A DNA stretch of 36,184 nt, from NCBI GenBank assembly GCA_023257525.1, contig JALRCB010000002.1:1-36184 (forward strand), in the 5' to 3' direction. Both the position numbers and the translations under genes were made by a program. This DNA is from Candidatus Nanopelagicales bacterium (GTDB lineage Bacteria; Actinomycetota; Actinomycetes; S36-B12; UBA5976). Shown here piece after piece: positions 27 through 32,641 of the stretch. Each line of letters begins with the position of its first letter. Position 1 is the first letter of the stretch. The notes below the pieces were generated by a model. That model worked only from the letters and a program-made list of their open reading frames with translations. It searched no databases and was not told where the DNA came from.

Positions 27-1115
27 TTGGCACTTTTAGGTGGCAATTTGGTCAAACGCGGGGTCGAGCAGGCCGATTTGAAACCTTCAGACCCGATGTG
101 GCTGAAGACCGAGCAAATCCTTGCCGATCACCACAGTAAATTCAGCAAGGCGCTCGCACACCACGGTGCTGTCCTCGAGACTATGCAGGCGAATTTACAA
201 GCTGGCTTTGTGAAAATTGGCGCTCTACTCTTAGCAGCGCTTATTGCGGGTATTGCAGCGCTTGCCTCAGCGCTTCAACTTAATAAGCACCTGAGCGAGC
301 AAGGCATCGGCGCAATGAGAGCGCAGTTTCAAGGCTTGCGTTCGCAAATGGATCAACTTGCCCATGCGCAGGCTGCCATGAGTGCTTCCGGGCGAGATCT
401 GTCTGCTGCCGGACGCGCAAGCGCGCGACAGGGTGCTGCCGTTTCGACGCGGTCAAGTGAGCCGGCGAGGGATGAGGGTCGAGAGACCGGGATTCGAGGA
501 TCCGTTATGAGTTCTGCAGTAGCGGCAGGCGTTGCCGCATCGGCTGGTTTGTCGCTTGCTGAGCTTGCAGCCCGCGTTGCGCTTTCGAGCGATTCAGAAG
601 ATGAAAAAGCCAACGAGAACGGATTCGAGGATCAGGATGCCTTGTTGGACGAGTCGAATTCCGATTCGAGGGTATCGGCACAATCGGAAGCAAATGGACA
701 TCAGTCTGGCGGATCAGAGGGACTGGCGCAAGAAATCGGTTCCGAAACAAGCGTTTCGGACGAGTCTGGGATACATACCGGGAGTTCTTTGCAGGAGTCA
801 GCTCAGCCTCACGCGAGTTCTGAATTGACTGCTGAAATTGATATATCCGCGACTGCGGATTCGCCCTTAGGGGGCCTCGCTGTTATGGCTCAGGGTACCA
901 CGGCGACTGAGGCGGAAATTCTTGTGCCCCGGCAGGGTGAGCAATTGGCGGCTGCAAGTAGTAGTGCTGACCCAACTGTTCAACGTGCCGACCTTGAAAC
1001 GTCGCAGGATGCTTCTGCGTCAAGTCCAGATAATCCTAACGGCCAAAATGCCGGTGCTTTACAACCATCAGAAAGCATAAATGCATCAAGGACTACGGAC
1101 GGTGCAAACGCCTGA
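27..1115 (+). CDS. Hypothetical membrane-anchored, acidic Ser/Ala-rich protein; possibly 5'-truncated by the window edge
   Basis: Long ORF with one hydrophobic helix (FVKIGALLLAALIAGIAALASAL), followed by a low-complexity acidic Ser/Glu/Asp-rich tail. The reading frame has no stop between nt 3 and the listed TTG start at 27, so the gene may begin upstream of the window. No recognisable family motif. Confidence 0.45.
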   Translation: MALLGGNLVKRGVEQADLKPSDPMWLKTEQILADHHSKFSKALAHHGAVLETMQANLQAGFVKIGALLLAALIAGIAALASALQLNKHLSEQGIGAMRAQFQGLRSQMDQLAHAQAAMSASGRDLSAAGRASARQGAAVSTRSSEPARDEGRETGIRGSVMSSAVAAGVAASAGLSLAELAARVALSSDSEDEKANENGFEDQDALLDESNSDSRVSAQSEANGHQSGGSEGLAQEIGSETSVSDESGIHTGSSLQESAQPHASSELTAEIDISATADSPLGGLAVMAQGTTATEAEILVPRQGEQLAAASSSADPTVQRADLETSQDASASSPDNPNGQNAGALQPSESINASRTTDGANA

Positions 1116-1476
1116 TACCAGTGATCGCTACATGCTTGTAAGCTTTGACGGAAGGCGCTACGCAATACCGCTAAAAATGTTGGAACGTGTGGTTGCTAAC
1201 ACACGGTGCGACCCCTGGATAGGCCGAGGCGATGTAAAAGGATACTCACACGTCGCAGGTTGGATGGTCTGGATACTCGATGCGAGCCAGGTTTTCGTCG
1301 ATTTTGAGGAGGTAAACGTTAATGGCAGTTGGCTTTTGGTTCTAAAGGAAGAACTTGGCCTTTCTAGGGTCGGCGTGCTTGCAGACGATATTAAAGGACC
1401 AGTTTCCCAGTCTAAATTGCAACATATCAAAAGACTTCAGCGCAGGAGTCTCGAAATGTCCCTAGACCAGCGGTAA
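1081..1476 (+). CDS. Small CheW-like domain protein
   Basis: YMLVSFDGRRYAIPLKMLERVV, VKGYSHVAGWMVWILDASQVF and WLLVLKEE..RVGVLADDIKGPV match the pattern of CheW-domain beta-strands (FLvF.lg.e.YaiPi..V.Ei / ikGvinlRG.ivPviDL / vivv....vGllVDeV). Alternative ATG at 1132 (MLVSF...) would avoid overlap with the previous ORF. The stop overlaps the next ATG (TAATG at 1474-1478). Confidence 0.55.
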   Translation: MHQGLRTVQTPDTSDRYMLVSFDGRRYAIPLKMLERVVANTRCDPWIGRGDVKGYSHVAGWMVWILDASQVFVDFEEVNVNGSWLLVLKEELGLSRVGVLADDIKGPVSQSKLQHIKRLQRRSLEMSLDQR

Positions 1477-3278
1477 TGATGCGCGCTCTTGAAAAGGGGC
1501 GGAGCCTTGTCAGCCCGCTTGGCCCGTTCTTTGTTCGTTACGGGCTGGTTTTAGTTCTTTCTATGGGTATGGTCGTTTGTATTTACCTTGGTGATCGCTT
1601 CGAACGTGAATTTACGGCCAATTTAGAGCAGGGATTTCAGCAACGCGTTGAACTCGGAGATTTAGCATCGTCTGTTCATCAGCTTCGGAAAATACTTGAA
1701 TCACCACGGGCCTTAGACCCAGGGTTTGTAGGTGGTCTCGTTGAAAGGATGAAGGAAGTTGAGGTTAAGGCTAAGGCTCAAGTAGATGCCGGTCGCATAG
1801 GCGAAATCTCGCTACCCACAAAAGAGCTTACTGTAATCGTCGGTATGCAACAAGGATTTGAGAGGTTGTCTGCGAGCGCAGGGCAGGTTGAGCGAGCGCA
1901 TAGCTTAAAACTAGCAATAAAGCCCCCCGAATCAGTCGATGGACCAGCGCTAAAGCGAGTGGGGGGGCTTCTTGATGACTATGTCAATGCTGCGGGTGCC
2001 TTGCGCAACTCACGTAGTGCTTCCTCGGGGTTAACATCCCTGCAGCAAGCTACCATGGCACTGGGAGAGAATCTGATCTCTGCTACAGTGGAATCGCGCC
2101 GAAAAACGACAGCTCAGGCATGGAGAGATGTCTTATTCCTTCTTCCTGCAGAGCGAGGCGATCTAGTCGATAGACTCCTTGCCGATGGACGCATGCTTGA
2201 AGATCTACAGAATCAGCGCCTCCGCGCCTTGTCGCGCCTTGAGCAAGTCGCAGCAAAGATCGATAGTGCGGAACGTCTGCTGCTCCAAAGTCGTTCGTCA
2301 GGCGGATTACTAGTTGTCTCGACCATTCTTACCTGGAGTGGGGTACTGTGTGGATTGCTGGGAATATTATCTAACGTTATTCAGCTTATTAGGTTGAACC
2401 GCATCACGGGTCGATCTTCGCATGAATCCCTCGAGTTGCTTGTTCCGCGGAGTGTACTAGCGACAGAACAGCACGATAACGGGTATGCTAAGACGACCGA
2501 TAACTCGTTGAATCCGACTGCCTCGGAAGAAGAGCAACTAATGGCCTCCCGAATTGCCAACGAGATCGTGCGGAAAGGAGCACGCGGTAGCGATAGTGAA
2601 GCTTTCATTGATGTAGCGTCCGAGGCACATACCGTCGTTGAATCAAAGGTTCAAGCGAAGCAAATTGTTTCCCTTGAATCGGAACCAGTAGAGAGTGTGA
2701 CCTCTGGCTATTGGATAGCCTCTGGTTCGATGGCAGAGCGCCGGGTTGCACTTCTCGATAGGCAGTCGCTTCAGCTTGAGCAGCATGTTCGAGCAGTCAT
2801 GGCCGCGGCTGAGACTTTGGCGGGTAGGATTGACGTTGTTGAGCAGTCACTGCAGCTGGCGGCAGAGGTTGATAGCGTTAATTCGGTTCAGGAATTGAGT
2901 GGGTTTCGACGTCGCATGGAAGAGCTGCAGTCAATTGCTATGAACCTATCGCTTGAAGTCGGAAATGGGGAGGCTCGTGAATCGACCCTCGACGAACTAG
3001 AGCGATTCAGCGACGAGCTTGAGGGTATGTCCGAAGAAGCAAAGCGTATCGTCGCTACCCAATCTGAGGGTGCATATGATCGACGTATTAGGTTGTCACT
3101 TGACGAGGCGCGTCGCATGGCTGCGGCAGCTGACACGTTGAGAGAACGAACTGAGCTTCTACTTGATGACGCACAGCGGTTTCGCAGGCACAGTGAGGCA
3201 TTGATTCGAGGTATCCAGGAGGGCGCTGTAGCTGAGTTGCCAGCTTCATATGTGCGACAACGAAGTATTGATGGCTAA
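1476..3278 (+). CDS. Two-TM membrane protein with MCP-like topology (helical periplasmic domain plus cytoplasmic coiled coil); function unknown
   Basis: TM1 is FFVRYGLVLVLSMGMVVCIYL and TM2 is LLVVSTILTWSGVLCGLLGILSNVIQLI, separated by about 240 aa of helical sequence. The C-terminal part is about 290 aa of heptad-like, E/R/L-rich sequence. Segment LQSIAMNLSLEVGNGEARES..FSDELEGMSEEAKRIV only weakly resembles the MCP hairpin tip (IA.QTNLLALNAAIEAARAGE.GRGFAVVA.EVR.LAerS). Translationally coupled to the preceding CheW-like gene. Confidence 0.5.
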   Translation: MMRALEKGRSLVSPLGPFFVRYGLVLVLSMGMVVCIYLGDRFEREFTANLEQGFQQRVELGDLASSVHQLRKILESPRALDPGFVGGLVERMKEVEVKAKAQVDAGRIGEISLPTKELTVIVGMQQGFERLSASAGQVERAHSLKLAIKPPESVDGPALKRVGGLLDDYVNAAGALRNSRSASSGLTSLQQATMALGENLISATVESRRKTTAQAWRDVLFLLPAERGDLVDRLLADGRMLEDLQNQRLRALSRLEQVAAKIDSAERLLLQSRSSGGLLVVSTILTWSGVLCGLLGILSNVIQLIRLNRITGRSSHESLELLVPRSVLATEQHDNGYAKTTDNSLNPTASEEEQLMASRIANEIVRKGARGSDSEAFIDVASEAHTVVESKVQAKQIVSLESEPVESVTSGYWIASGSMAERRVALLDRQSLQLEQHVRAVMAAAETLAGRIDVVEQSLQLAAEVDSVNSVQELSGFRRRMEELQSIAMNLSLEVGNGEARESTLDELERFSDELEGMSEEAKRIVATQSEGAYDRRIRLSLDEARRMAAAADTLRERTELLLDDAQRFRRHSEALIRGIQEGAVAELPASYVRQRSIDG

Positions 3279-3289
3279 GTGATTGGTAG

Positions 3290-4651
3290 GTGGTCGTGGA
3301 CGATCCAAACGATGATTTGTTCCTAATCGACGCAGAACAAGCCGTCCAGGAAATGTTGCAATATGGCAAGGGAGAAGGAGAGTTTTCTGTCGAAAGGGTA
3401 ATCGCAACCTCTGATTACCTAGCGTCGCTTCTCTGGTCAATTGGACTCGCAGATCATGGCGAAGCTGTTGATACCTTGTCACGTCATTTGAAAGAACTCG
3501 ATGCTGTATCTTCAAGGCGGTTGGCAAGAGACCTCTCAAGCTTGGTGATCGAGCAAATTCAAGCGATCAAGGCCGGGGATTCTATGAGAGATCAATCAAT
3601 AGCCCTGGGCCAACTTAAGGCGAGATTTCAGGACGCTTTTCCTGAAATCTCCAGAGCAGCAAATGGTGGCCAGAGTCAACAGGATGTTTCACAACCTACA
3701 AAAACAGCGTCAGGCCTTGATGAAGAACTCATTCGAGACGCTGCCGCAGCACTGCATGCCGTTGACCATTTAGCGAGTCTTCTAGGGAAGCAAACACCCC
3801 TGCACCAAGACAATCGCGATGGGATCAATGGCGATTCTCTGGATATCCCGAATTCACGTGTTAGCAATTCAGTTGTTTGCGAAGAGCTAGAACTAAATGA
3901 GGGGAAGGTGGTGAAACCACTGGAGAGCGAAGCTTACTCTCAGCCATGGTCTAACCCTTCAAAAGGGTCGAGTGCCTCGACCTTTGGGGACAACACATAC
4001 ACTGTTGACGAATCATTTCGCAAAGCCGTTGCGTTTCAAGGAATGGAGCCATGGCGTCAAGGGTTTTTAGGCGTATTAGAGTCGATTGATCAGATCGATC
4101 GGGTCGAATTAAGCCGTTGCCTGCCTAATTTCTTAATGCTTCGAGACGATACTGATATCGCTATGAGTGCGACATTAGGTAGAGCTTTGTTTGACCTTTT
4201 TTCGGTGGCCACGGGCAGTTCAGGTTTGGTTGAAGCTTCGTCTTCAGGAAACACAATTTCGTTAACGATTGAATTTAAGGTCCTTCCAGTCGTACCACAA
4301 CTCGGTTTACGAGTGCAGAGTCTTGGTGGGCGAGTACACATCGACTATAAGTTAAATCGCCTGAGTCTTACGCTGCCTACTTCCCTGCGATTGGTTAGAC
4401 TTGTTCAAGTCAAGATCGGCGAGAGACGATTTGCCTTTTCTTGGGCACAATTCATTAGTCATCGAGAATATGGAGAAGGGAAGACTATAGAGTTGCTAAT
4501 CGGGGATCACAGCGAATCGATTGTCGTTGATAGCATGGAAAGTCCTGCTATAGCGATCCGATATGAACTTCCTCGTGAATTTTGGAAACGTGATCAATAC
4601 AAGGGGATTGCGCTGACTGATCAGGGTCAATTTATCCCGATTTATGGGTGA
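3290..4651 (+). CDS. CheA-like protein lacking kinase motifs (P4 remnant plus CheW-like P5 domain); putative pseudokinase or scaffold
   Basis: GTG start preceded by GGTAGG. VQSLGGRVHIDYKLNRLSLTLPTSLRLVRLVQVKIGERRFAFSW aligns by eye with the CheA P4/P5 junction (MGG.v.i.S..G.GTt..i.LPLTLAIldgl.VrVgde.yaiPl). IELLIGDHSESIVVDSM and YKGIALTDQGQFIPIY resemble the end of P5 (lLvVDellGq.qvVvK / isGATILGDGrValIlD). G-box glycines (GxGT) and DDGxG are not present: LNR and IEFKV occupy those places. The stop overlaps the flgA start by 8 nt. Confidence 0.5.
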   Translation: MVVDDPNDDLFLIDAEQAVQEMLQYGKGEGEFSVERVIATSDYLASLLWSIGLADHGEAVDTLSRHLKELDAVSSRRLARDLSSLVIEQIQAIKAGDSMRDQSIALGQLKARFQDAFPEISRAANGGQSQQDVSQPTKTASGLDEELIRDAAAALHAVDHLASLLGKQTPLHQDNRDGINGDSLDIPNSRVSNSVVCEELELNEGKVVKPLESEAYSQPWSNPSKGSSASTFGDNTYTVDESFRKAVAFQGMEPWRQGFLGVLESIDQIDRVELSRCLPNFLMLRDDTDIAMSATLGRALFDLFSVATGSSGLVEASSSGNTISLTIEFKVLPVVPQLGLRVQSLGGRVHIDYKLNRLSLTLPTSLRLVRLVQVKIGERRFAFSWAQFISHREYGEGKTIELLIGDHSESIVVDSMESPAIAIRYELPREFWKRDQYKGIALTDQGQFIPIYG

Positions 4652-5357
4652 GATTTTTATCCGTGTTGGGGAGGCGAATGGACCAAAGCGTCTTTTCGCG
4701 GGGATCTTCGCAGTTTGCTTATTTTTCACTGAAGGTGTGCAAGCCAATGCTGAATGGAAGAATGCCATCGAGAAAGTTGTGAGAGACCAGGCTTTGCTTC
4801 AGTCCCAGACGCCATCGGTCGAATGGATTGATCCAAAGACTGATGCATTGCCGCAATGTTTGAATCCAAGAGTTTCTTTGCCTGCTACAACGCGTCCTGT
4901 GGGTCGACTGACTGTCAGTCTTCGTTGTGATTCGACCCGGTGGATTGGATCGCTCCAAATAAATATCAGTGCGCGAAGAAACTACTTGGCCTCATCAAGA
5001 GCGCTTCCTGCCGGTACTGTCATTGCCGAGGAGGACATGATTGCTTCAGAAGGGGATTGGTTCGGCCTTCCGGACGATGTGACAGCAGAGTCACGACTGG
5101 TTATTGGAAAGACGTTATCTAAGGGACTGATGAGCGGTGCACCCATAACCCTAAATTCGCTGCGTCAAACATCCGTTATTAAGAGTGGAGAACGGGTTCG
5201 AGTCGAGTTTGTAGGGGTCGGTTTCGCAGTTAGCGGAGAGGCTTTGGCGCTCGACTCAGGTTCTATCGAGGAGCAAATTAGAGTTCGGATGGCCAACGGG
5301 CAGGTTTTGTCTGTTAGGGTGGTAAAGCGTGGTGTTGTTGAGTTGCGGCGAGATTAA
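4644..5357 (+). CDS. flgA: Flagellar basal-body P-ring formation chaperone FlgA
   Basis: N-terminal signal-like hydrophobic segment. The C-terminal SAF/FlgA pattern is GERVRVEFVGVGFAVSGEALALDSGSIEEQIRVRMANGQVLSVRVVKRGVVEL. Position is immediately upstream of flgM-flgN. Confidence 0.85.
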   Translation: MGEIFIRVGEANGPKRLFAGIFAVCLFFTEGVQANAEWKNAIEKVVRDQALLQSQTPSVEWIDPKTDALPQCLNPRVSLPATTRPVGRLTVSLRCDSTRWIGSLQINISARRNYLASSRALPAGTVIAEEDMIASEGDWFGLPDDVTAESRLVIGKTLSKGLMSGAPITLNSLRQTSVIKSGERVRVEFVGVGFAVSGEALALDSGSIEEQIRVRMANGQVLSVRVVKRGVVELRRD

Positions 5358-5376: not shown

Positions 5377-5766
5377 GTGAGCGATATGAACGTCCAATTT
5401 GGAAATGTAGGACAACTTGAGCAGCGTAGTTTGGATTCTTTAAAGGCATCGTCTCCCGGTGTTCAGGATCTGACAAAGCGGGTTGCCGTTGCACAAACAT
5501 CAGCGAAAGCTATTCAAGAGGTTATGGCAAAGTCAGCAGCTGCTGGTCAGTCTGCGACGCCTGCCCCTTCTGCTCAAGTAACTGTTGATGCGGCAAAACT
5601 GGGCAGAATCGCTGCTTCCGAAAAGACCACCGATCCCGATCAACTTGATACCGATAAGCTAGATGCGTTAAAGCAGCAAATTAAAGACGGTTCATTTGAG
5701 ATTGACTTTAGCTTGATAGCGACTCATCTGGCAGATCAAGCTCTGGGCGGCCGCAGTCGACGATAG
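5377..5766 (+). CDS. flgM: Anti-sigma-28 factor FlgM
   Basis: Small, unstructured-looking Ala/Ser/Gln-rich protein with the typical C-terminal motif (KLDALKQQIKDGSFEIDFSLIATHL). Sits between flgA and flgN. GTG at 5377; alternative ATG at 5386. Confidence 0.8.
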   Translation: MSDMNVQFGNVGQLEQRSLDSLKASSPGVQDLTKRVAVAQTSAKAIQEVMAKSAAAGQSATPAPSAQVTVDAAKLGRIAASEKTTDPDQLDTDKLDALKQQIKDGSFEIDFSLIATHLADQALGGRSRR

Positions 5767-5804: not shown

Positions 5805-6209
5805 GTGACTAATCCGATCATGGGTTGGCAGACCCGGGAACTTATCGAGCAATTTGTGGCAGCGATGGCTCTTCAAAGACAGGCGTTGCTAGATAGTGAT
5901 TGGGATTCCCTCAAGAGAGCGATTGAATTGCTTACTGTCTCACTCACCAACATCAATTCATTTCCTGGCGGGTTGGAAGGTCTATCTGCATCATTAAACG
6001 AGCAGGATGACGAAAGTCGCTCCCAGTTGCGCTTACTATTGAGACAAGGCGACATCGACAGACAAGTCTCGAATACGATGTTGCGGATGAATCTGGCGAG
6101 GTTGAGTGCACTCAACGCGATCATGACATCTTCGCAAGATGTGAATACTTATCAATCAACCCAAGGTTTACCTGAAGATACGCCACAACGCATCTCCCAT
6201 CGCGTTTGA
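5805..6209 (+). CDS. flgN: Flagellar export chaperone FlgN-like
   Basis: 134-aa helical protein directly after flgM, which is the canonical flgMN order. Leu/Gln-rich helical sequence (LIEQFVAAMALQRQALLDSDWDSLKRAIE). GTG at 5805; alternative ATG at 5820. Confidence 0.7.
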   Translation: MTNPIMGWQTRELIEQFVAAMALQRQALLDSDWDSLKRAIELLTVSLTNINSFPGGLEGLSASLNEQDDESRSQLRLLLRQGDIDRQVSNTMLRMNLARLSALNAIMTSSQDVNTYQSTQGLPEDTPQRISHRV

Positions 6210-6963: not shown

Positions 6964-7839
6964 TCAGGCAGATGCCTGCGAGTCGACGTCTTCCACCGAC
7001 TCAGACCTTGTTGAAACGCTAAGGGCGGAGTGATCTTTAATCACACCCTCGGGGAAGATTCTGCTCGCCATGAGTCTGTAAAGACTGGAAGGCATCATCG
7101 GCTCACTTTCGTCACCCTGCGCGGTTGCAAACTGCATTGCGCGGACCCATCCCAAGTAATCAAGAGGTTGATCAAGGAGTTCGTAGGCTTGACGTTGCAG
7201 TGACTCGAATGATTCATCGCCGATTTCTTGCGATCCACCGCCTACTGAAAGCACTGGAATCGGAGATCCACCAAAAAGCACGGCGAGCTCACTCACCATC
7301 TTCAAGCTTTTTTCGATTGCTGTGTCTCCAGTTCCAGATATCAGGATGTGTTCCATATCGTCTGCGAACAACTGGTGGGTGCTTCGATGGGGATCGGTGC
7401 TCGCGACAATCACAACATCCACGTCGATACCTGCTTGTTGTAAACGCTCCGCCAGGGTGGGGGGTTTTGCCTTCTTATCCTCTTTCGCTCGTCGGAGCTT
7501 TGTTGCAACGCAGTACCAAAGCCGGTCACCTACCGGTTTTACTACCTTTTCGATGCCAATCAGACCAGAAAACACTTGGCCAAGGTCATACCGAACCGGA
7601 AATGGCGTACCACCTAATAAGCTTCGATTAGACATGGGGACTTCGTCAACTAACAAAACCCTTTGGCCTGCTCGCCTTAGTGCATTTGCAGCACCAAGCG
7701 CAACCATCACAGTTGGGTCACCGTGTAGGGAACTAACAAGGCACCAAACCCGAGCATAACCTTCTCCGAAAAGCTGTCGGAGACCTGCTGCCTGATCTGA
7801 TTGGCCAAGACCTGAGCTAGGGCTTTGATTTTCCGTCAT
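6964..7839 (-). CDS. flhG: FlhG/FleN-like MinD/ParA-fold flagellar number regulator with a degenerate Walker A motif
   Basis: Canonical position between flhF and fliA. The N-terminal DQAAGLRQL matches the FlhF-activating DQAxxLR motif. MinD-like core is RVWCLVSSLHGDPTVMVALGAANALRRAGQRVLLVDE, but SSLHGDPTV replaces the deviant Walker A GKGGVGKT. Confidence 0.8.
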   Translation of the reverse strand: MTENQSPSSGLGQSDQAAGLRQLFGEGYARVWCLVSSLHGDPTVMVALGAANALRRAGQRVLLVDEVPMSNRSLLGGTPFPVRYDLGQVFSGLIGIEKVVKPVGDRLWYCVATKLRRAKEDKKAKPPTLAERLQQAGIDVDVVIVASTDPHRSTHQLFADDMEHILISGTGDTAIEKSLKMVSELAVLFGGSPIPVLSVGGGSQEIGDESFESLQRQAYELLDQPLDYLGWVRAMQFATAQGDESEPMMPSSLYRLMASRIFPEGVIKDHSALSVSTRSESVEDVDSQASA

Positions 7840-11444: not shown

Positions 11445-11549
11445 TGATCGATGACTGATCTGCTAAACAAAAATTAAAAGGGGCCCGTTAACCAAAGCAT
11501 GGAACATCTAGAGTCTAGGTTTGGGGTGAAAAGGGCGAGCCCTACTTTT

Positions 11550-11557
11550 GGGGGGGG
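11550..11557. repeat. Homopolymeric G8 (C8 on the minus strand) tract in the flhA upstream region
   Basis: Direct reading: acttttGGGGGGGGtaag. It lies 106-113 nt upstream of the flhA start codon at 11444. Confidence 0.9.
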
Positions 11558-11580
11558 TAAGTTCTGCTACGCAAATGCGC

Positions 11581-11617
11581 TTGAAAATTTTGGATACAGG
11601 TCTAATCAAATTTTCAA
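11581..11617. repeat. Perfect 10-bp inverted repeat with a 17-nt spacer, upstream of flhA
   Basis: TTGAAAATTT (11581-11590) and AAATTTTCAA (11608-11617) are exact reverse complements. The site lies in the 294-bp gap between the flaG stop and the flhA start. Confidence 0.85.
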
Positions 11618-11671
11618 TACTCGCCGTAATACTGATATGGACGCTAATTTCGATGCAATTGGCACTAATGC

Positions 11672-11708
11672 AAAACCCGCCGGACCCATGGATAGGTTGG
11701 CGGGTTTT
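11672..11708 (-). terminator. Rho-independent terminator after fliC-flaG (potentially bidirectional)
   Basis: AAAACCCGCC (11672-11681) pairs with GGCGGGTTTT (11699-11708). The GC-rich stem is flanked by an A-run on one side and a T-run on the other, about 30 nt downstream of the flaG stop. The 17-nt loop is rather large. Confidence 0.6.
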
Positions 11709-11738
11709 ACTTGGCGCTATGACTTGACAGGCGAGCTA

Positions 11739-12149
11739 TCAAGCTTTTTTGTTGACAAGCAAACTTGCGAGGTAGTCGATAGTGCGAGCGAGTTCAACGA
11801 CTTCAGGGGCAGGAATTTGGCGGACAACCTCATTGGATTGAGAGTCCCTAACTACCATCACCGTCGAGTGACTGACATTATCGAATCTGATATCCAGGTT
11901 CCGATTCATAGAACTAGCGAAAGAGCGGATTTTCTCACCGGCAACTTCAACCGACTCTTTCGTGATTCTGGCGGACTCATGAACCGAGGGGGCTTTAGAA
12001 CTTCTTGCCTCCGTGATTCGAGCAGAAACCTGCTCGACCGACGGACCCCTCGATTGATGATCGGTAGATTGCTTGGAAACTTCGGCTTTCGAAGCAGGCG
12101 GACCCTGGCTAGGAACCGCCGTGCTCAAACTTACGGACGTGGTCATCAT
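11739..12149 (-). CDS. flaG: Flagellar protein FlaG
   Basis: The C-terminal pattern LDIRFDNVSHSTVMVVRDSQSNEVVRQIPAPEVVELARTI is characteristic of the FlaG family (l.f..de..g..vVkv.D..tgEviRqIP.ee.l). Immediately downstream of a flagellin gene. Confidence 0.8.
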   Translation of the reverse strand: MMTTSVSLSTAVPSQGPPASKAEVSKQSTDHQSRGPSVEQVSARITEARSSKAPSVHESARITKESVEVAGEKIRSFASSMNRNLDIRFDNVSHSTVMVVRDSQSNEVVRQIPAPEVVELARTIDYLASLLVNKKA

Positions 12150-12185
12150 AGCCTCCTAGCTAAGAATAGACTTTTATTAGGCCCT

Positions 12186-13085
12186 TTACTTCAAGAGCGC
12201 CAAGACTACGTTAGGCTGCGCGTTTGCTTGAGACAGCATAGCAGTAGCAGCTTGTTGGAGAATTTGGGTCTTAGTCAAATTCGCGGTTTCAGCTGCGTAA
12301 TCAGTATCAACAACCCGACTGTTGGCCGCGCTGAGGTTCTCATGAAGGGCAGTAAGGTTGGCAATGTTGTGGTTCAAGCGGGTTACGGTAGTTCCGAATT
12401 TAGCCCTAAGCGTCGCAACTTCTGTAAGGGCGGCATCTGCATAAGCGGAGTACGACGAAAACTGAGAAGTTGCGTTTATCTTACCAGTGCCATCGTCGTT
12501 GAAATAAGTGTCGTTGATTTCGCCTTCAGCAAGAATATTGGTGTAAAGCTTCGTGAATTCTTCGCTTTCTCCGACGCTCTGGAGATTTACCTTATTGATT
12601 TCTACTATCCCGATACCGGTAGTTGTGTTGAGTTCTGGACCGGTTTGAAAGGTAAGTGCGCCAGTAGAGGAAAGCAACTTATTGTTGTTAAATGTTGTTC
12701 TGTCGGAAATAGCGACGATTTCTTTCGCCAAATTTCCCATCTCAACCGAAAGATAGGCTCTTTGGTCGCTCGAGAGAGCGCCGTTCATGCCTTGAGTGGC
12801 AAGTTCTTTAAAACGTTGCAACATGCTAGAGATTTCTGCAAGAGCACCTTCAGCGGTCTGAGCAATACCAATCGCATCATTTGCATTTCTAATGGCTACG
12901 GAAGTGGTATTGATGCTAGCAGTGAGTTTTTGCGAAATTCCCATACCCGCAGCATCGTCTTGGGCGCGATTGATTCTCGACCCGCTAGACAATTTCTCGA
13001 ACTGGCCGCCCAGTTTATTTTGAGCATTAGTAAGGTAGCGCTGAGCGGAAATCGACGCCATGTTAGTCATGAGTACGGATGCCAT
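12186..13085 (-). CDS. fliC: Flagellin, short 299-aa form
   Basis: Conserved flagellin N-terminus (NMASISAQRYLTNAQNKLGGQFEKLSSGSRINRAQDDAAGMGIS...AIRNANDAIGIAQTAEGAL) and C-terminus (SRVVDTDYAAETANLTKTQILQQAATAMLSQANAQPNVVLALLK). Confidence 0.95.
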   Translation of the reverse strand: MASVLMTNMASISAQRYLTNAQNKLGGQFEKLSSGSRINRAQDDAAGMGISQKLTASINTTSVAIRNANDAIGIAQTAEGALAEISSMLQRFKELATQGMNGALSSDQRAYLSVEMGNLAKEIVAISDRTTFNNNKLLSSTGALTFQTGPELNTTTGIGIVEINKVNLQSVGESEEFTKLYTNILAEGEINDTYFNDDGTGKINATSQFSSYSAYADAALTEVATLRAKFGTTVTRLNHNIANLTALHENLSAANSRVVDTDYAAETANLTKTQILQQAATAMLSQANAQPNVVLALLK

Positions 13086-13142
13086 GAATTTCTCCAGTGA
13101 GTTAAACGTTTTGACTGTTTGGGCGATTGCCCCCTGTACTGG

Positions 13143-16548: not shown

Positions 16549-17697
16549 ATGAATCAGATACCTTCGGTTGGTTCGGATGCAGCTATAGCACCTCGGACAG
16601 GCTCGGGAAGCCCACAATCGTCGCCGCAGCAACGAGCAGATGCAGTAGCAACGGTCGTTTCTGACAGTATTTCGGCCCGGGCTGACCCTGGGGTCATGCT
16701 CAAGGTTGTTCCGCCGCCTCAAACGAGAGAGGGGGGCGTCGCTGTACAGCGTGATGAGGCAACGAACAATGCACTGCTCGCGCTTTTGCAACTGCTGAGA
16801 GACCCCGGCCGAGTTGAAGGCGAATCGGTTGACTCCGCTACCGACGCGGACCAAGCGATTGCAGCGCGATTAGCGCGATTCTTAGCTAATTTACCTCCTG
16901 ATGTACAAAAGGCAATCGAGTCAGCGAAGACGCCTGAACTCGCTAAGCTCATTCGTCTCTCGGCGATGACCGCGCCTGGGATTAGGGAGGCACCTGCAGT
17001 CCTTGCAGGTCGATCGGACCCTCTCGCAACAGACCCAATGCTTGGCATGGAAGAGCTTCTTAGGGATATCGAATCATCACCCGTGTTTAAACTGACTGCA
17101 AAACTAAGAGACCTTGTAAGCACGGAAAGCGTGTCAACGCGCTTAGGTGAGTCACCTGCACGTTTCGAAGCGAATCAGACACCGAGGACCGAAGCTGGCG
17201 CCTATTCCCAAGCTGCAAACGGCACAACTCAGGGTTTTTTAAATTTGCTCAACGAGGCTGCGAATTCTGCTCAGCCTTCTTACCAGGATAATAGTCCTCG
17301 GCTCGCTGTGGGAGCTGAAATAGCCCAGAATTTTGACGCGGGTGATCTTCAGCAGGCCGTCAAGGACGGCCTTAGGCTCTTGATGGATGGCCGTCTTATT
17401 TGGCAAGGTGAAATTGTTCCCGGAAGCCCGCTGCGATTTGAACGAAGTGATGCTTGGGGAACATCTGCTGAATCCCCCGGGGGTATGGAGAAGGGCACGG
17501 TACTGAAAATTCAACTAGAACATCCGGAATTGGGTCGGATTGAGTTGAGAGCACTTGGACTCGGGGGGCAAGTAAACATTCGGCTTTTTGGCTCAGAGCC
17601 CGCAATTTCAATGATGCTCGGGGCGCTACCTAAGATGAATGACCGCTTGAAGCAGGTTGGTCTATCAGGCACCCAGATCTCTGTAGAATCCCACTGA
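16549..17697 (+). CDS. FliK-like hook-length-control domain protein (second copy in the window)
   Basis: The C-terminal segment VLKIQLEHPELGRIELRALGLGGQVNIRLFGSEPAISMMLGALPKMNDRLKQVGLSG matches the FliK C-terminal (Flg_hook) pattern l.L.P.eLG.v.v.l....g.v.v.f......r..l...l..Lr..L...Gl. The N-terminal part is low-complexity and Pro/Ala/Ser-rich. Confidence 0.7.
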   Translation: MNQIPSVGSDAAIAPRTGSGSPQSSPQQRADAVATVVSDSISARADPGVMLKVVPPPQTREGGVAVQRDEATNNALLALLQLLRDPGRVEGESVDSATDADQAIAARLARFLANLPPDVQKAIESAKTPELAKLIRLSAMTAPGIREAPAVLAGRSDPLATDPMLGMEELLRDIESSPVFKLTAKLRDLVSTESVSTRLGESPARFEANQTPRTEAGAYSQAANGTTQGFLNLLNEAANSAQPSYQDNSPRLAVGAEIAQNFDAGDLQQAVKDGLRLLMDGRLIWQGEIVPGSPLRFERSDAWGTSAESPGGMEKGTVLKIQLEHPELGRIELRALGLGGQVNIRLFGSEPAISMMLGALPKMNDRLKQVGLSGTQISVESH

Positions 17698-21289: not shown

Positions 21290-21388
21290 CGACTTACATT
21301 CGTGCTGTACTTCGGGTCGGCAAAATTTGCCCCCCGGCAAAACCTGCTGAATAATTCGGTTGAACTTTACAACGAGACTTATAGAACT

Positions 21389-23308
21389 ATGGCCGATGTC
21401 AACCCCGGACTTGCGGCGCAAGCTGAAAATGGTGCGACTGTTATTGGTGTGAATCCAAATGCTATCGTGCAAGAGGAGGTTGCACCGCCCAAAGTCGAGC
21501 GAATGAATCGCCCAGGTGGGCCTAAGACGCTTGCTGATCGCTGGCAGGAGGTCGTTGGCCGCGTTAGTGAACTGCCTCCGCTTCGAAAGGTGCTTCTTGC
21601 CGTATCGATTTTGCTCGTTGCAGTGACGGTTGTTTTGGTAGCTGCCTCCGGGGATAGCAAGGATGACTACAAGGTACTTTTTTCGAATGTGAACGACAAA
21701 GACGGTGCTGCGATCGTGGCAGCATTGGAGCAAATGAAAGTTCCACACCGATTTACAGAGGGTGGTGGAGCTATCTTGGTCCCGGCTGACAAGGTTTACG
21801 ACGCAAGGTTGAAACTCGCAGGACAAGGTCTTCCCAAAGCGGGTAACGTCGGCTTCGAGCTTCTTGAGAATCAAAAGCTTGGGACGTCTCAGTTCGTTGA
21901 GCAGGTGAATTACCAACGAGCCCTTGAATCAGAGTTATCTGGTTCGATCAAGACACTGGCGCAAGTTCGAGATGCAAGAGTTCATCTCGCGATACCTAAA
22001 ACCTCAGCCTTCTTGCGAGATCAGCCCAAACCTACCGCATCTGTGGTGCTTACGCTACATCCGGGGCGAGTCGTTGATGATCAGCAGGTCACGGCGATTA
22101 CGCACCTTGTTTCCTCTTCGATACCTCAGCTAGCGCCATCCATGGTGACTGTTGTTGACAGCGATGGGGGGCTTCTTGCTCCAAATGCTTCGAGGGGTGC
22201 GGCAGCTGGAATGGACGCTGCTCAGATTAAGTATGTCGGTGAGGTTGAAAACCAAGTTTCAAGACGGATCGTTACAATTCTCGAGCCTGTAACTGGTCGG
22301 GACAACGTGCGGGCTCAAGTAGCTGTCGATGTCGATTTCACTCAAAGCGAGCGCGCCGAGGAAATCTTCAAGCCGAACTCAGGGCAAAACCCAGCAAGTA
22401 TTCGGTCACAACAAAATCTCGAAGCGAGCGGTCCGGTTACGAGCGCTGGGGGCATTCCAGGCGCGCTAAGCAATCAACCACCGCAAGGCGGACAGGCGCC
22501 TGTCGATGGCCAACCGGGTCAGGGTCAGGCGCAACCTCCTGGTACACAGAGCCCGGTATCGACGAATGCAAACAGAAAAGAGCAGACGGTTAACTACGAA
22601 GTTGACAGAGCGATTCAGACGGTTAGAGGACCGCGGGCATCTGTGAAGCGCGTTTCTAGTGCGGTTATTGTGAATTACAAAAAGACAGTTGACGCGGATG
22701 GAAACGTAAAGGAAACACCATATTCGCAGCAAGAGCTCCAGCAGATGACGGCGCTTGTTCGAGATGCGATGGGTTTTTCCCAGCAAAGGGGGGACTCGGT
22801 TTCGGTTGTGAGCATTCCGTTTTCTCCACCCGTTATTGATGAGCCGCCGTTTTGGAAACAGGCAACCTTTGCAAGCGTGATGAAGGAGTTTTTCAAGTTT
22901 TTGATTATTGCAACTGTGCTCGGCTTAGTAACCGTTTTCTTGGTACGACCAATTCTCTTTCCGCCTCCACCTAAGGTTGTTGAGGAAGAGCAGCGGATCG
23001 AGGAAGAATTTGATGAACGTGTTAAAGCAGAATTGCAGGCCATGTCGCCCGCCGCACGAGAGAAACGTCGACTTGAGCTTGAGCTGGAGCGTGAACGTAG
23101 GCGTTTGCAAGAAGAAGAAGAGCGCCAACGCCTCGAGGAAGAACGACGGATTCTCGAGGACAAACGCAAGCGTGAGGAGGAGGAAAAGGCGGCTGAATAC
23201 GAAGAGCTGCTAGCTTACGCCAAGGAGTTTGTCCAAAAAGATCCGCGTGTCGTCGCAGCGATATTCAAACAATGGTTACAAGAAGATGTGGAAAAAGGTT
23301 TGGCTTGA
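21389..23308 (+). CDS. fliF: Flagellar MS-ring protein FliF
   Basis: Matches seen: YKVLFSNVNDKDGAAIVAALEQMKVPHRF..GGGAILVPADKVYDARLKLAGQGLP, VQILEN-type LENQKLGTSQF, and AVIVNYK. Two TM helices. The C-terminal DPRVVAAIFKQWLQED is the usual FliG-binding tail. ATG at 21389 (MADVNPG) is preferred over the track start at 21302. Confidence 0.95.
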   Translation: MADVNPGLAAQAENGATVIGVNPNAIVQEEVAPPKVERMNRPGGPKTLADRWQEVVGRVSELPPLRKVLLAVSILLVAVTVVLVAASGDSKDDYKVLFSNVNDKDGAAIVAALEQMKVPHRFTEGGGAILVPADKVYDARLKLAGQGLPKAGNVGFELLENQKLGTSQFVEQVNYQRALESELSGSIKTLAQVRDARVHLAIPKTSAFLRDQPKPTASVVLTLHPGRVVDDQQVTAITHLVSSSIPQLAPSMVTVVDSDGGLLAPNASRGAAAGMDAAQIKYVGEVENQVSRRIVTILEPVTGRDNVRAQVAVDVDFTQSERAEEIFKPNSGQNPASIRSQQNLEASGPVTSAGGIPGALSNQPPQGGQAPVDGQPGQGQAQPPGTQSPVSTNANRKEQTVNYEVDRAIQTVRGPRASVKRVSSAVIVNYKKTVDADGNVKETPYSQQELQQMTALVRDAMGFSQQRGDSVSVVSIPFSPPVIDEPPFWKQATFASVMKEFFKFLIIATVLGLVTVFLVRPILFPPPPKVVEEEQRIEEEFDERVKAELQAMSPAAREKRRLELELERERRRLQEEEERQRLEEERRILEDKRKREEEEKAAEYEELLAYAKEFVQKDPRVVAAIFKQWLQEDVEKGLA

Positions 23309-23360
23309 CCTTAGGTAGGCCATTCAAGTTGAGCGCTTCATTCGATCCCGAGGCACATGC

Positions 23361-24053
23361 ATGACAAGGTTGGCTGCAGAGCGCTGGTTCCCTCCAAGTT
23401 TTGATCCTCCAATTCCGGAGCCAGAACCCGAAATTGTATGGCCGACGGTTGAGGAAATTGAAGCGATTCGTGAGGCTGCTCGTAGGGAGGGCTTTGATGC
23501 AGGTCGCCAAGAGGGGTACGAGCGAGGTGTTGCTGAGGGCTTGACTCAAGGTTTTGAGCAAGGGCTAAATGAGGGACGTGAACAGGCATACGTTGAGCAT
23601 GTGGCCAAGATCGCCGAGTTGACCAGTGCACTTGAGGCTTTCATTCATGAGTTAAAGGATCTGCCAGACGTGATCCTCGAGCCTATCACTGACTTAGCCT
23701 GGTCAATTGCGCAGCGACTTTCACTTTCAGATCATATCGATAGAGGCCCATTTTTAGGCGCGGTTGAAGAAGCTTTGATGCGTCTTCCGTCTCCAGGTGA
23801 AAATTTGTTACTCCGAGTTCCGCCTGCCATGAGAATTATTTGGGACGAGTTTCTGGAGCGCGCGGGATTACCATTCAAAGTCGACGTGTTGGCGGACGCT
23901 GAACAGCATAGTGGTGCATTTATAGAAGTTGGTGGAAGCCGGCTTGATGTTGGGCCCGAGGCGAGAAGAGCGCTTGTATTGATGGCAATGGGGCTATTGC
24001 CGCGAGAATCCGACGATACAAGTGGGGCGGTTGACCTTGAGCAGTCGAGCTGA
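23361..24053 (+). CDS. fliH: Flagellar export ATPase regulator FliH
   Basis: Repeat-like charged helix (EEIEAIREAARREGFDAGRQEGYERGVAEGLTQGFEQGLNEGREQA) followed by a C-terminal domain (LLLRVPPA...GAFIEVGGSRLDVGPEAR). Immediately upstream of fliI and overlapping it. Confidence 0.85.
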   Translation: MTRLAAERWFPPSFDPPIPEPEPEIVWPTVEEIEAIREAARREGFDAGRQEGYERGVAEGLTQGFEQGLNEGREQAYVEHVAKIAELTSALEAFIHELKDLPDVILEPITDLAWSIAQRLSLSDHIDRGPFLGAVEEALMRLPSPGENLLLRVPPAMRIIWDEFLERAGLPFKVDVLADAEQHSGAFIEVGGSRLDVGPEARRALVLMAMGLLPRESDDTSGAVDLEQSS

Positions 24054-25957: not shown

Positions 25958-27226
25958 ATGATTGCCATCAAGTCTTCACCAACGCAGTCGATGAAGCAGG
26001 AAAACCCCGCCGTTGGTACAGAAAAATCTGCCGAACAGCGGAATGATCTAGCCTTTGAATTGCTTCTTGGCCTGATGGGGGGGCGTTTTCAGGGAGATTG
26101 TGATGGCGCCCAGCTACCCTCAGATGAATTGGTTGCCGACGGCAAACGGGTAACCGATGTTGGCTTGGTAACGGCAAGTATTGCCGGCCCGCAGTCGTTT
26201 CAGGTTTCGACGCCAACTGCGGTGGGGCATGACCTAACCGATTCAGAGGCTCTCGGCGGTGTTAGTGCGCTACTTGATGCCTCCGTAGCCGCGCTTAGAC
26301 GGCAGGGGGATGATCCTATGGTAGGAGCACAGCTCGGGTTGGAAGCTGCGCGAAAGGCGTTTGCAGCGCTGAATGCTCAGGCGGACCAAAATCTTCTAAC
26401 TGCTAGGCTTGCTGCAGCAGTTAGGGGTGACCGTGCCGCGCTTCAAGAGTTGATTTCAGATGGGTTTCTTGCCAAGCTCAATCCCGTGGCAGTCGTTCCT
26501 CGAGATTTTGCGATTGAACAGCATCTTCAGGAATCAATCCAGGGAGCGCTTTCTGGGCGGATAGTCGACGGGCAGATACTGCAAGCACAAGTGCTTGAAA
26601 TTGATGGCAGTACTGCCCCTCTTCAGGCTGATGAAATGAAAACTCAGGGTTCCTACAATCTGTACTCGGGGGCTGACTTATCGCCTCTCAATGACGGCGA
26701 TGCTGATGCTTCTAAGTCGCTTGATATATTTCAGCGAGAAGGCGATCTACCACTACTCTATGTGCAGGACTCTCGAGCCCCCTCAAATAGTCAAAGCCAG
26801 GGTGTAGCAGGCATTGTCAGCTCGCAGCCAATGATTGAGCCAACCGTAAATTGGTTGTTGTCTCAACAAGGTGGAGGGGCTACGATTGACCTCACGCCAC
26901 CGGATTTAGGTCACGTGCGCGTTGAATTGAAGCTTGATTCAGCGGGTCAGCATGCAACGCTTGTGGTGCATCCTTCCTCTGATGCTGCGAAAGCTTCAAT
27001 CGAGCAATCACTTTCCCGTTTGGTTGACGTTTTTGCTGCATCGGGTATGCAGTTATCAGTATCGGTTGAAAGTGGGCAATCCGGACTTGGGTTTGCAAGA
27101 GAGCGTGAAAGGCCTCCGAGAGACTTGGGATTGGATCGGGTAAGCTCCTTAGAGCAGTCGAGGGATTTTGGTCTTGCGATGCGGCGTTCTACGCTGAGCG
27201 AGTCAGGGCTAAGCTTATACGTATAG
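25958..27226 (+). CDS. fliK: Flagellar hook-length control protein FliK
   Basis: The C-terminal IDLTPPDLGHVRVELKLDSAGQHATLVVHPSSDAAKASIEQSLSRLVDVFAASGMQLSVSVESGQ matches the FliK C-terminal domain pattern. Canonical position after fliJ. Confidence 0.82.
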   Translation: MIAIKSSPTQSMKQENPAVGTEKSAEQRNDLAFELLLGLMGGRFQGDCDGAQLPSDELVADGKRVTDVGLVTASIAGPQSFQVSTPTAVGHDLTDSEALGGVSALLDASVAALRRQGDDPMVGAQLGLEAARKAFAALNAQADQNLLTARLAAAVRGDRAALQELISDGFLAKLNPVAVVPRDFAIEQHLQESIQGALSGRIVDGQILQAQVLEIDGSTAPLQADEMKTQGSYNLYSGADLSPLNDGDADASKSLDIFQREGDLPLLYVQDSRAPSNSQSQGVAGIVSSQPMIEPTVNWLLSQQGGGATIDLTPPDLGHVRVELKLDSAGQHATLVVHPSSDAAKASIEQSLSRLVDVFAASGMQLSVSVESGQSGLGFARERERPPRDLGLDRVSSLEQSRDFGLAMRRSTLSESGLSLYV

Positions 27227-28132: not shown

Positions 28133-29182
28133 TTGAGCGAGAGTCCAGTGAGTGAAGCTGTAAAGGCGACGGCAGACGATCAACCAGACGATGACTTGGG
28201 TAACGACGTTCTCAAGACAAATCGCGAGGCCAAAGCCTCAGTCTTTGACAAGATGCATCGCATTCTTAGCAGGAGAATGCCGACCCTTGAGCTGATTCAT
28301 GAGCGATTTGCTCGAACCATGAGGCTGCAGTTATTTAACATGATTCGCTGCCGTTGCGAAGTTGATCTCCATCCCCCGAAAATAAAACCATATTCCGATT
28401 TTCTCTCGAGCTTTCCCGAGCGTACAAATATCAACATTGTTAACATCAAATCGCTCCGCGGGGTCGCGTGCTGGATTGTTGACCCAGCTGTTATATACCT
28501 CACAATCGATAATATGTTTGGTGGCGAGGGGCACCTCGAACCCAAAATCGTTCCAAAGGAATACACAGCGACAGAGTTAAGAATAGTTAGACGTTTTGTC
28601 GATATGGTTCTCGCAGAATACGAAAAGGCGTGGAAACAAGTTTATGAGTTGAAGTTTGATTTTGTAAGATCCGAAGGTAATTTTCAGTTTGCAAAAATTA
28701 CTGGTAACGATGAGATGGTCTTGCACTGTAAGTTCACGATTGATATCAATGGACGCGCAGGCGATGTGGACTTTTGCGTGCCTTTTTGGGTGTTTGAACC
28801 TCTAAAAGCAACATTGTTTGCGCAGTCCGTAGGCTTCCAGATGGAAGCAGATACGAAATGGACAGGAGCACTAGAAAGCGAAATGCAGACAGCAGAAGTA
28901 GAGATTGCTGCAATTCTCGCTGAAAGAAAAATGTTGCTTGGAGATATTCTGTCATTGAATGTTGGTGAAATAATACCCATCGAAGTTCAGGATCCAATCA
29001 CGGCCTTTGTAAATCGAGTGCCAATGATCCGAGGTAAGTATGGTGTTAAGAACGGTCGGTATGCCCTACGAGTCGAAGAGATTCGTAACCCTACTGACTT
29101 TGTAAGTCTTGGACTCAAAAATAAGCAGTTGCTTGGGCCTCAAAAGTATGATGATGAATTCAAGTTTGGTATGGAGAAATAA
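28133..29182 (+). CDS. fliM: Flagellar motor switch protein FliM
   Basis: MPTLELIHERFARTMRLQLFNMIRCRCEV, and a C-terminal SpoA-like domain (LSLNVGEIIPIEVQDPITAFVNRVPMIRGKYGVKNGRYALRVEEI). TTG start at 28133; alternative GTG at 28148. Confidence 0.93.
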   Translation: MSESPVSEAVKATADDQPDDDLGNDVLKTNREAKASVFDKMHRILSRRMPTLELIHERFARTMRLQLFNMIRCRCEVDLHPPKIKPYSDFLSSFPERTNINIVNIKSLRGVACWIVDPAVIYLTIDNMFGGEGHLEPKIVPKEYTATELRIVRRFVDMVLAEYEKAWKQVYELKFDFVRSEGNFQFAKITGNDEMVLHCKFTIDINGRAGDVDFCVPFWVFEPLKATLFAQSVGFQMEADTKWTGALESEMQTAEVEIAAILAERKMLLGDILSLNVGEIIPIEVQDPITAFVNRVPMIRGKYGVKNGRYALRVEEIRNPTDFVSLGLKNKQLLGPQKYDDEFKFGMEK

Positions 29183-32629: not shown

Positions 32630-32641
32630 GGGGATATCGAC

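Follow-up and report, generated by a model that had tools for sequence, protein, structure and literature searches.

A predicted CheA-derived protein lacking catalytic motifs is encoded in a conserved flagellar gene module

A 36,184-nucleotide stretch of contig JALRCB010000002.1 (assembly GCA_023257525.1, deposited as Candidatus Nanopelagicales bacterium), hereafter called the window, is occupied by one large flagellar gene cluster. An open reading frame (ORF) located directly upstream of flgA encodes a protein resembling the chemotaxis kinase CheA. This CheA-like protein is probably a CheA-derived pseudokinase. Without catalytic activity, it would most likely serve as a scaffold or adaptor, in a complex at the membrane that is linked to the flagellum. 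From the computed fold, the loss of motifs, and the synteny, I infer its partners, its role, and its flagellar link. The coordinates of the ORF and its domains are listed in Table 1. The GTG codon at position 3296 is the more likely start than that at 3290, because a Shine-Dalgarno-like GGTAGG lies at 3285-3290, because the homologues begin with M-D-[DE]-R, and because gene calls on near-identical contigs give a protein of 451 residues that begins two codons after 3290.

The CheA-like protein has no match in Pfam or NCBIfam even at E ≤1, and a phmmer search against PDB gave nothing at E ≤10. A word-indexed protein search returned the protein itself and one relative with 41% identity, only. When 1.84 billion cluster representatives were scanned exhaustively with HMMER, a family of 27 clusters (at 50% identity) was found. 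Proteins from 23 of them were aligned, 18 of which are full-length. Every named cluster member checked is labelled "hypothetical protein". The relevant Pfam families (HATPase_c, Hpt, HisKA, and CheW) do not match any of the 23 members at E ≤5, and hmmsearch with the family profile found no meaningful match among the PDB sequences. A profile word-index search with the 23-sequence alignment returned only four close members and no intermediates toward real CheA. A literature search for CheA pseudokinases and degenerate CheA-like flagellar proteins found no account of this family. To my knowledge, no wholly non-catalytic CheA homologue has been described.

The relationship to CheA emerged from structure prediction. 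An AlphaFold2 (AF2) model based on two sequences was uninformative, with a predicted local distance difference test (pLDDT) score of 44. The AF2 model built on the 23-sequence alignment has a mean pLDDT of 80.9; residues 10-120 and most of residues 230-453 are above 90, and residues 127-143 and 168-227 are disordered. When this model was searched against PDB using Foldseek, ranks 1 to 8 were all CheA P3-P4-P5 structures with a probability of 1.00: 8c5v_A (E 1.9e-9), 6s1k_A, 3ja6_C, 1b3q_A/B, 2ch4_A/B, and 3ur1_A (down to E 2.3e-7). The alignment to 8c5v_A covers 385 columns of the 391-residue P3-P5 chain. The next match is P5 alone (4jpb_A, E 1.3e-3, TMt 0.54). Many histidine-kinase CA and DHp-CA structures were also matched (E ~1e-2), and the weaker matches include a CheA P1-CheY complex (2lp4, E 1.3e-2), CheW (2qdl_B, E 1.5e-2), and the degenerate kinases ChpT (4fmt) and DivL (4q20), both at E ~4e-2. 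The whole-chain TM-scores are low (0.2-0.36), because the inter-domain geometry differs.

The family alignment was also compared by hhalign with a control alignment of ten CheA sequences (the cheA of E. coli and nine CheA genes carried on plasmids). A single local match was found, with residues 330-394 lying on residues 470-537 of E. coli CheA. This region comprises the G2 box (GRGVGMDVVK), the GT block (GTGT), the LPLTLAI segment, and the first strands of P5. With the full alignments, the pairwise E value was 5e-4 and the probability 32%; with only the C-terminal halves, the values were 1e-4 and 58%. The match is weak when taken alone; as a comparison of sequence profiles, it is concordant with the Foldseek result.

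The AF2 model allows the domains to be described. An N-terminal P1-like bundle consists of five helices (residues 6-27, 34-51, 54-69, 72-95, and 103-125), for which hhalign gave no signal against CheA P1. A disordered linker follows the bundle, and P2 is absent from the model. Two helices then form a possible P3-like hairpin; the pLDDT is 60-75 for residues 146-167 and above 90 for residues 234-250. The insertion between these helices is disordered and hypervariable, ranging from 46 to 224 residues across the family. The P4-like core ends with helix 294-305, two strands (312-319 and 322-329), a loop of eight residues, a further helix (338-344), and two final strands (348-352 and 357-363). In the model, this order reproduces the GHKL core: the N-box helix, two strands leading to G1, the place of the lid, the G2 helix, and two strands leading to LPLT. 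The first strands of the P5-like domain align with those of CheA by hhalign, while Pfam CheW is silent on this domain. A preliminary description of the ORF, made by a model from the sequence, had drawn attention to the peptides RVQSLGGRVHIDYKLNRLSLTLPTSLRLVRLVQVKIGERRFAFSW and IVVDSMESPAIAI...YKGIALTDQGQFIPIY, which are present as residues 341-385 and 410-452, respectively. Its line-up of the protein with the CheA P4/P5 junction was reproduced by hhalign in the same register. The fold that it expected was recovered by Foldseek, with CheA P3-P4-P5 in the top eight places and P5 and CheW as weaker matches, and the shortening of P5 that it had noticed amounts to ~90 residues here versus ~140 residues in CheA.

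Is there any trace of the kinase chemistry? The patterns D.G.G, G.G.G, G.GT, [FY].PGF, and N..[DE]H were found in the last 240 residues of none of the 23 family members. In contrast, the CheA controls have G1 and G2 in ten of ten sequences and the N box in nine of ten. The segment carrying the F box and the ATP lid is ~50 residues long in CheA (from D420 to G470 in E. coli) but only ~8 residues long here (from strand 322-329 to helix 338-344). No histidine is conserved in helices 6-125, 146-167, or 234-250. H56 is present in seven of the 18 full-length members, and the commonest histidine column (15 of the 23 members) is occupied by Arg271 in the window protein. With its CheA-like fold and P4/P5 register, and with all members lacking the boxes, the ATP lid, and a conserved histidine, the description of the protein as non-catalytic and CheA-derived is well supported. 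The preliminary description had arrived at the same view, which now agrees with the fold, the P4/P5 register, and the missing boxes, lid, and histidine. The loss of the ATP boxes that it reported turned out to be family-wide, with no mis-registered ATP-binding residues revealed by the alignment, and the confident HPt histidine that it could not find is not conserved anywhere in the family. It was right that the G2 box is absent but mistaken in equating G2 with GxGT; the latter is the GT block following the true G2 box GRGVG, and both are missing. By the secondary-structure register, the G1 position is not IEFKV, as it had read, but lies at about KVLPV, directly behind the strand ISLTIEF. Judging from the model, the CheA-like protein cannot bind ATP canonically or autophosphorylate.

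The conservation within the family is unevenly distributed. Among the 18 full-length members, the mean pairwise identity is 32% in the P1-like domain, 29% in the P4-like domain, 40% in the P5-like domain, and only 11-13% in the linkers. The best-kept part is the P4-P5 junction together with the P5-like domain. Seven residues are invariant across the family and many more are nearly so; the invariant residues of the P5-like domain are S365, R370, W385, G405, and G439. A dense conserved block can be written as G347 R348 .. P363 S365 R367 L368 R370 .. W385 .. G405 .. R434 .. G439 .. P450. Upstream of this block, the conserved residues are Y43, R76/R77, A157/D159, D240/F243/A246, D267/D270, and T322. 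Y43, on helix 2 of the P1-like bundle, is found in 15 of the 18 members, and R76/R77 in 17 of 18. As far as sequences can tell, such domain-specific conservation marks a protein that is functional and folded but non-enzymatic, and not a pseudogene. The ratio of nonsynonymous to synonymous substitution rates was uninformative, since the sequence of the locus L030 is essentially identical and the other orthologues are too diverged.

Is the gene neighbourhood also conserved? The CheA-like gene closes a module of six genes, encoding in order a 209-residue protein, a 281-residue protein, a PDZ-domain protein, a short CheW-like protein, a two-transmembrane protein of 600 residues (TM600), and the CheA-like protein; flgA, flgM, and flgN come next. 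The organisms that carry this arrangement are uncultured Betaproteobacteria from fresh water. The same order was found in every locus that is long enough. These loci belong to the window population (L003-L006 and L030-L031), the relative with 41% identity (L001/L002), and three Burkholderiales metagenome-assembled genomes (MAGs; L017-L019). In the locus of the most divergent member P0027 (L028), gene calls and Pfam show this order too, with an unannotated gene for a 135-residue protein in the CheW-like position. Loci limited by their contigs are consistent with this order: L020, from a Lake Tanganyika betaproteobacterial MAG, has the upstream module and ends inside the CheA-like gene, and L029 (P0019) has the CheA-like gene, flgA, and flgM. 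The convergent genes fliA, fleN, flhF, and flhA follow the module wherever the loci reach, L017-L019 having been checked as far as flgN. Start and stop codons overlap at 1081/1115, 1476, and 4644/4651, the last being the overlap of the CheA-like stop codon with the ATG of flgA, which reads ATGGGTGA. By this reading of the overlaps, the CheA-like gene is translationally coupled to the module and to flgA. In scans of the region preceding the module, sigma-54 and sigma-28 consensus sequences were about as frequent as expected by chance.

Along the operon, the similarity to the window decreases. The identity is 80-90% for the 281-residue protein, 63-78% for the 209-residue protein, 65-77% for the PDZ protein, 53-62% for TM600, 36-53% for the CheW-like protein, and 28-41% for the CheA-like protein. 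The CheW-like protein passes the Pfam threshold of PF01584 (E 1.1e-5, 25.5 bits against a cut-off of 23.5), covering positions 2-92 of the 138-position CheW model, that is, the first two thirds only. It matches CheA P5 by hhalign with a probability of 54%, and the name given by JGI to one of its relatives is "chemotaxis signal transduction protein". In every near-full context, the second gene before the CheA-like gene encodes a CheW-domain protein. The part of the PDZ protein in the window has one transmembrane segment and a disordered tail rich in Ser, Ala, and Glu. The genes for the 209- and 281-residue proteins overlap each other at the head of the module, to the left of the window edge (L003, 2524-3989). 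Neither protein has a match in Pfam, NCBIfam, or PDB; the 281-residue protein has an N-terminal transmembrane segment. They are the best-conserved proteins of the module, with 63-90% identity to their MAG relatives.

TM600 has transmembrane segments at residues 15-33 and 276-294, a periplasmic domain of ~240 residues, and a conserved helical domain at the C-terminal, cytoplasmic end (residues 410-600). Its topology, as predicted from the sequence, recalls that of a receptor. No match was found in Pfam, NCBIfam, or PDB, and MCPsignal (PF00015) is absent. An hhalign comparison with an alignment of eight methyl-accepting chemotaxis protein (MCP) sequences gave a probability below 1%. The 74 members of the TM600 family are all close relatives, none of which has a Pfam domain. 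A tip-like motif, LAMNLSLEVGNGE, was seen by eye, and the idea of a chemoreceptor found no support in hhalign, the PDB search, or the family expansion. Conserved Gly/Pro residues at 450, 528, and 545 interrupt the putative arms, and a heptad analysis gave no clean two-arm hairpin. The invariant RVELGDLASSV (within residues 54-75, window 1635-1700) was compared with EMGDLAQSV of the Tar HAMP AS2 motif and was rejected. The 22-residue hhalign match has a probability of 1.6%, the segment would be periplasmic by topology, and the likeness is probably due to chance.

In CheA, P5 docks to CheW and to the receptor tips, and P5 and CheW form the array rings that hold the receptors and the kinase. Since the P4-P5 junction and the P5-like domain are the best-kept parts of the family, a non-enzymatic adaptor or scaffold is the most likely role. 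In view of the array rings, the CheW-like protein and the membrane protein stand out as candidate partners. The parts for assembly (the P4-P5 junction, P5, and probably the dimerisation helices) would have been kept while the chemistry was lost. The co-translated short CheW-like protein and TM600, and possibly the PDZ membrane protein, would probably join the CheA-like protein in a membrane-anchored complex. Since the module is coupled to flgA-flgM-flgN and adjoins fliA-fleN-flhF-flhA, this complex appears to be tied to the flagellum. It would serve the assembly, placement, or regulation of a polar flagellum rather than phosphorelay chemotaxis. I infer the scaffold function from the retained P5- and CheW-like parts and from the conserved, coupled neighbourhood with its CheW-like and two-transmembrane proteins.

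Some points weigh against this proposal. The sequence searches of Pfam, NCBIfam, and PDB are all silent, so the homology rests on the predicted structure and one weak profile-profile match. The assignments of P1 and P3 are weak, given the Foldseek E value of 1.3e-2, the negative hhalign result, and the pLDDT of helix 146-167 in the model. TM600 has no detectable chemoreceptor relationship, and an "array-like" complex thus lacks sequence support. It may also be that the P4-like core harbours a non-canonical nucleotide or ligand site. A wider idea is more tentative and on balance doubtful. The whole six-gene module might have arisen from a chemosensory core complex by exaptation and have no enzymatic function at all, serving as a flagellar-regulon membrane scaffold in a lineage of freshwater Burkholderiales. 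Such a scaffold might act in the placement of the pole or the flagellum or in assembly checkpointing, in a setting where FliM lacks the CheY-binding peptide and the FlhG-position protein lacks Walker A. If true, the array architecture would have been reused outside phosphorelay signalling.

Four other explanations were weighed. Phosphate could be shuttled via a residue of the helical bundle in a ChpT/Spo0B-type phosphotransfer protein with a dead CA domain. ChpT and the Tyr-for-His pseudokinase DivL are among the Foldseek matches, the P4-like domain is lidless as in ChpT, the cluster has a FleS/FleR two-component pair, and helix 2 of the N-terminal bundle carries the conserved Y43. However, the P1- and P3-like helices have no conserved histidine (neither H56 nor the column of residue 271 qualifies, the latter being Arg in the window protein), and neither an Hpt nor a HisKA signal was detected in any member, which makes a phosphotransferase unlikely. 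ChpT, Spo0B, and DivL are instructive in another respect, for their GHKL-like domains without lid or catalytic residues are used for protein-protein contacts, as may be the case for the CheA-like protein. In contrast to the latter, they derive from DHp-CA kinases and have no CheW-like P5, and ChpT and Spo0B keep a phosphorylatable histidine. If the reading by eye had put the ATP-binding residues in the wrong register, the protein could be an active kinase of the CheA type, in keeping with the CheA-like fold found by Foldseek. Such a kinase is hardly credible, however, in view of the lack of any ATP box in the C-terminal 240 residues of the 23 members, the lid of ~8 residues instead of ~50, and the absence of HATPase_c at E ≤5.

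The resemblance to CheA might instead be spurious, a model artefact or convergence, in which case the protein would be an unrelated lineage-specific flagellar accessory protein. All the sequence-profile libraries are silent and the domains are arranged differently, as the low whole-chain TM-scores indicate. Nevertheless, the top eight Foldseek matches are exclusively CheA at a probability of 1.00, the independent hhalign comparison reaches the same junction in the same order, and a short but bona fide CheW-domain gene lies nearby, as expected for a che-derived locus. Thus, a spurious resemblance is quite unlikely. A functionless, decaying relic of a lost chemotaxis operon would explain why the catalytic features are all lost, and FliM without the CheY-binding peptide would fit a lineage leaving CheY control. 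A relic is nonetheless very improbable, since the ORFs are intact in 27 clusters at 24-41% identity, seven residues are invariant, and the conservation is domain-specific. The gene order and the translational coupling are also strictly kept, and neutral decay would long since have broken the frame.

A non-catalytic scaffold derived from CheA can be compared with known systems. With CheA (1B3Q and 2CH4 of T. maritima; 8C5V and 6S1K of E. coli), the CheA-like protein shares the predicted P3-P4-P5 fold, the P4-P5 register, a P1-like topology, and a CheW-domain gene nearby. Unlike CheA, it lacks the acceptor histidine, P2, the N, G1, F, G2, and GT boxes, and the ATP lid, and its P5 is shorter. It also differs in having a long disordered insertion in the putative P3 hairpin and no Pfam domain recognised, and its gene sits in a flagellar structural and regulatory operon instead of a che operon. 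Rhodobacter sphaeroides CheA3 consists of P1 and P5 only, and CheA4 of P3-P5 only. These proteins provide a precedent for a partial CheA catalytic machinery and for P5-dependent incorporation into a complex. However, CheA3 with its intact histidine and CheA4 with its intact P4 make up an active kinase/substrate pair, whereas the CheA-like protein has neither the histidine nor the ATP site. Vibrio ParP is a CheW-domain adaptor without kinase function. Myxococcus FrzB is reported to be a divergent CheW without the CheA-binding region (bioRxiv 10.1101/239202 / PMC6952110). ParP and FrzB exemplify a CheW/P5-type fold used as a pure structural adaptor, and the shortening of FrzB resembles that of the CheW-like neighbour and the short P5. 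They differ from the CheA-like protein, however, in being single-domain adaptors in functional chemosensory arrays and not CheA-derived multi-domain proteins.

CheA holds a central place among the paradigms of bacterial signalling. With this family, nature offers a test of which CheA parts serve assembly and which serve catalysis. The family is conserved and abundant in lake metagenomes but invisible to Pfam and NCBIfam; a seed alignment for the annotation of a new CheA-like pseudokinase family is supplied. A new membrane complex associated with the flagellum may also come to light through it. Several other components of the motor and of flagellar placement seem to have been remodelled in this clade, namely the FliM N-terminus, FlhG, and the position of fliG and flhB.

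Table 1. Features of the window: the CheA-like ORF, its predicted domains, and the surrounding genes
Feature	Position	Strand	Remarks
CheA-like ORF	3290-4651	+	453 residues from GTG 3290; 451 residues from the probable start GTG 3296
P1-like five-helix bundle (residues 6-125)	3305-3664	+	AF2 pLDDT >90; Foldseek 2lp4, E 1.3e-2
Possible P3-like hairpin (residues 146-250)	3725-4039	+	Helices 146-167 and 234-250 flanking the insertion 168-233
P4-like (GHKL/HATPase_c-like) alpha/beta core (residues 251-363)	4040-4378	+	AF2, Foldseek, and hhalign
Shortened P5/CheW-like beta domain (residues 364-453)	4379-4648	+	Eight short strands; Foldseek 4jpb_A and 2qdl_B
PDZ-domain membrane protein	27-1115	+	C-terminal part of a ~644-residue protein truncated at the window edge; overlaps the CheW-like start
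Short CheW-like protein	1081-1476	+	131 residues (124 from 1102); stop overlaps the TM600 start
TM600, two-transmembrane protein	1476-3278	+	600 residues; 11 bp upstream of the CheA-like ORF
flgA	4644-5357	+	
flgM	5377-5766	+	
flgN-position gene	5805-6209	+	flgN by position only, no Pfam match
fliA, fleN-position gene, flhF, flhA, flaG, one flagellin		-	Follow the flgN-position gene
Second flagellin, fliD, fliS, FliK-like gene		+	Follow the first flagellin
fliE, fleR/fleS		-	Follow the FliK-like gene
fliF, fliH, fliI, fliJ, fliK, fliL, fliM, fliN, fliOP, fliR, flgB, flgC, flgD		+	Follow fleR/fleS

Several other observations were made on the flagellar cluster. No cheY, cheB, or cheR gene was found in the 36-kb window. 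FliM (28133-29182, plus strand) has the N-terminus LSESPVSEAVKATADDQPDDDLGNDVLK and lacks the CheY-P-binding peptide LSQxEIDALL; its match to TIGR01397 starts at model position 26. This N-terminus suggests that the flagellar motor is perhaps not controlled by CheY. The fleN/flhG-position gene (6964-7839, minus strand) encodes a protein of 291 residues with no Pfam or NCBIfam match, and its equivalents in the relatives also have no Pfam match. It has SSLHGDPTV in place of the deviant Walker A motif KGGxGKT and is possibly a second degenerate ATPase of the cluster.

FliG and FlhB were not detected in the 36-kb cluster. In the region 21302-24053 (plus strand), fliF (668 residues, with a full-length TIGR00206 match) is separated from fliH by 52 bp, and fliG does not lie between them. 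Two genes are found between fliR and flgB (31739-34021, plus strand), where flhB might be expected. One is an ORF of 296 residues with a lipoprotein-like N-terminus and no family match, and the other encodes a protein of 459 residues that contains a carbonic anhydrase domain of the eukaryotic type (PF00194, E 3e-14). An Arg/Ser/Cys-rich ORF of 533 residues (11499-13100, plus strand), antisense to flaG and a flagellin gene, is almost certainly a spurious shadow ORF. The Flg_hook domain of FliK is present in two ORFs, one of 382 residues after fliS (16549-17697, plus strand) and one of 422 residues after fliJ (25958-27226, plus strand).

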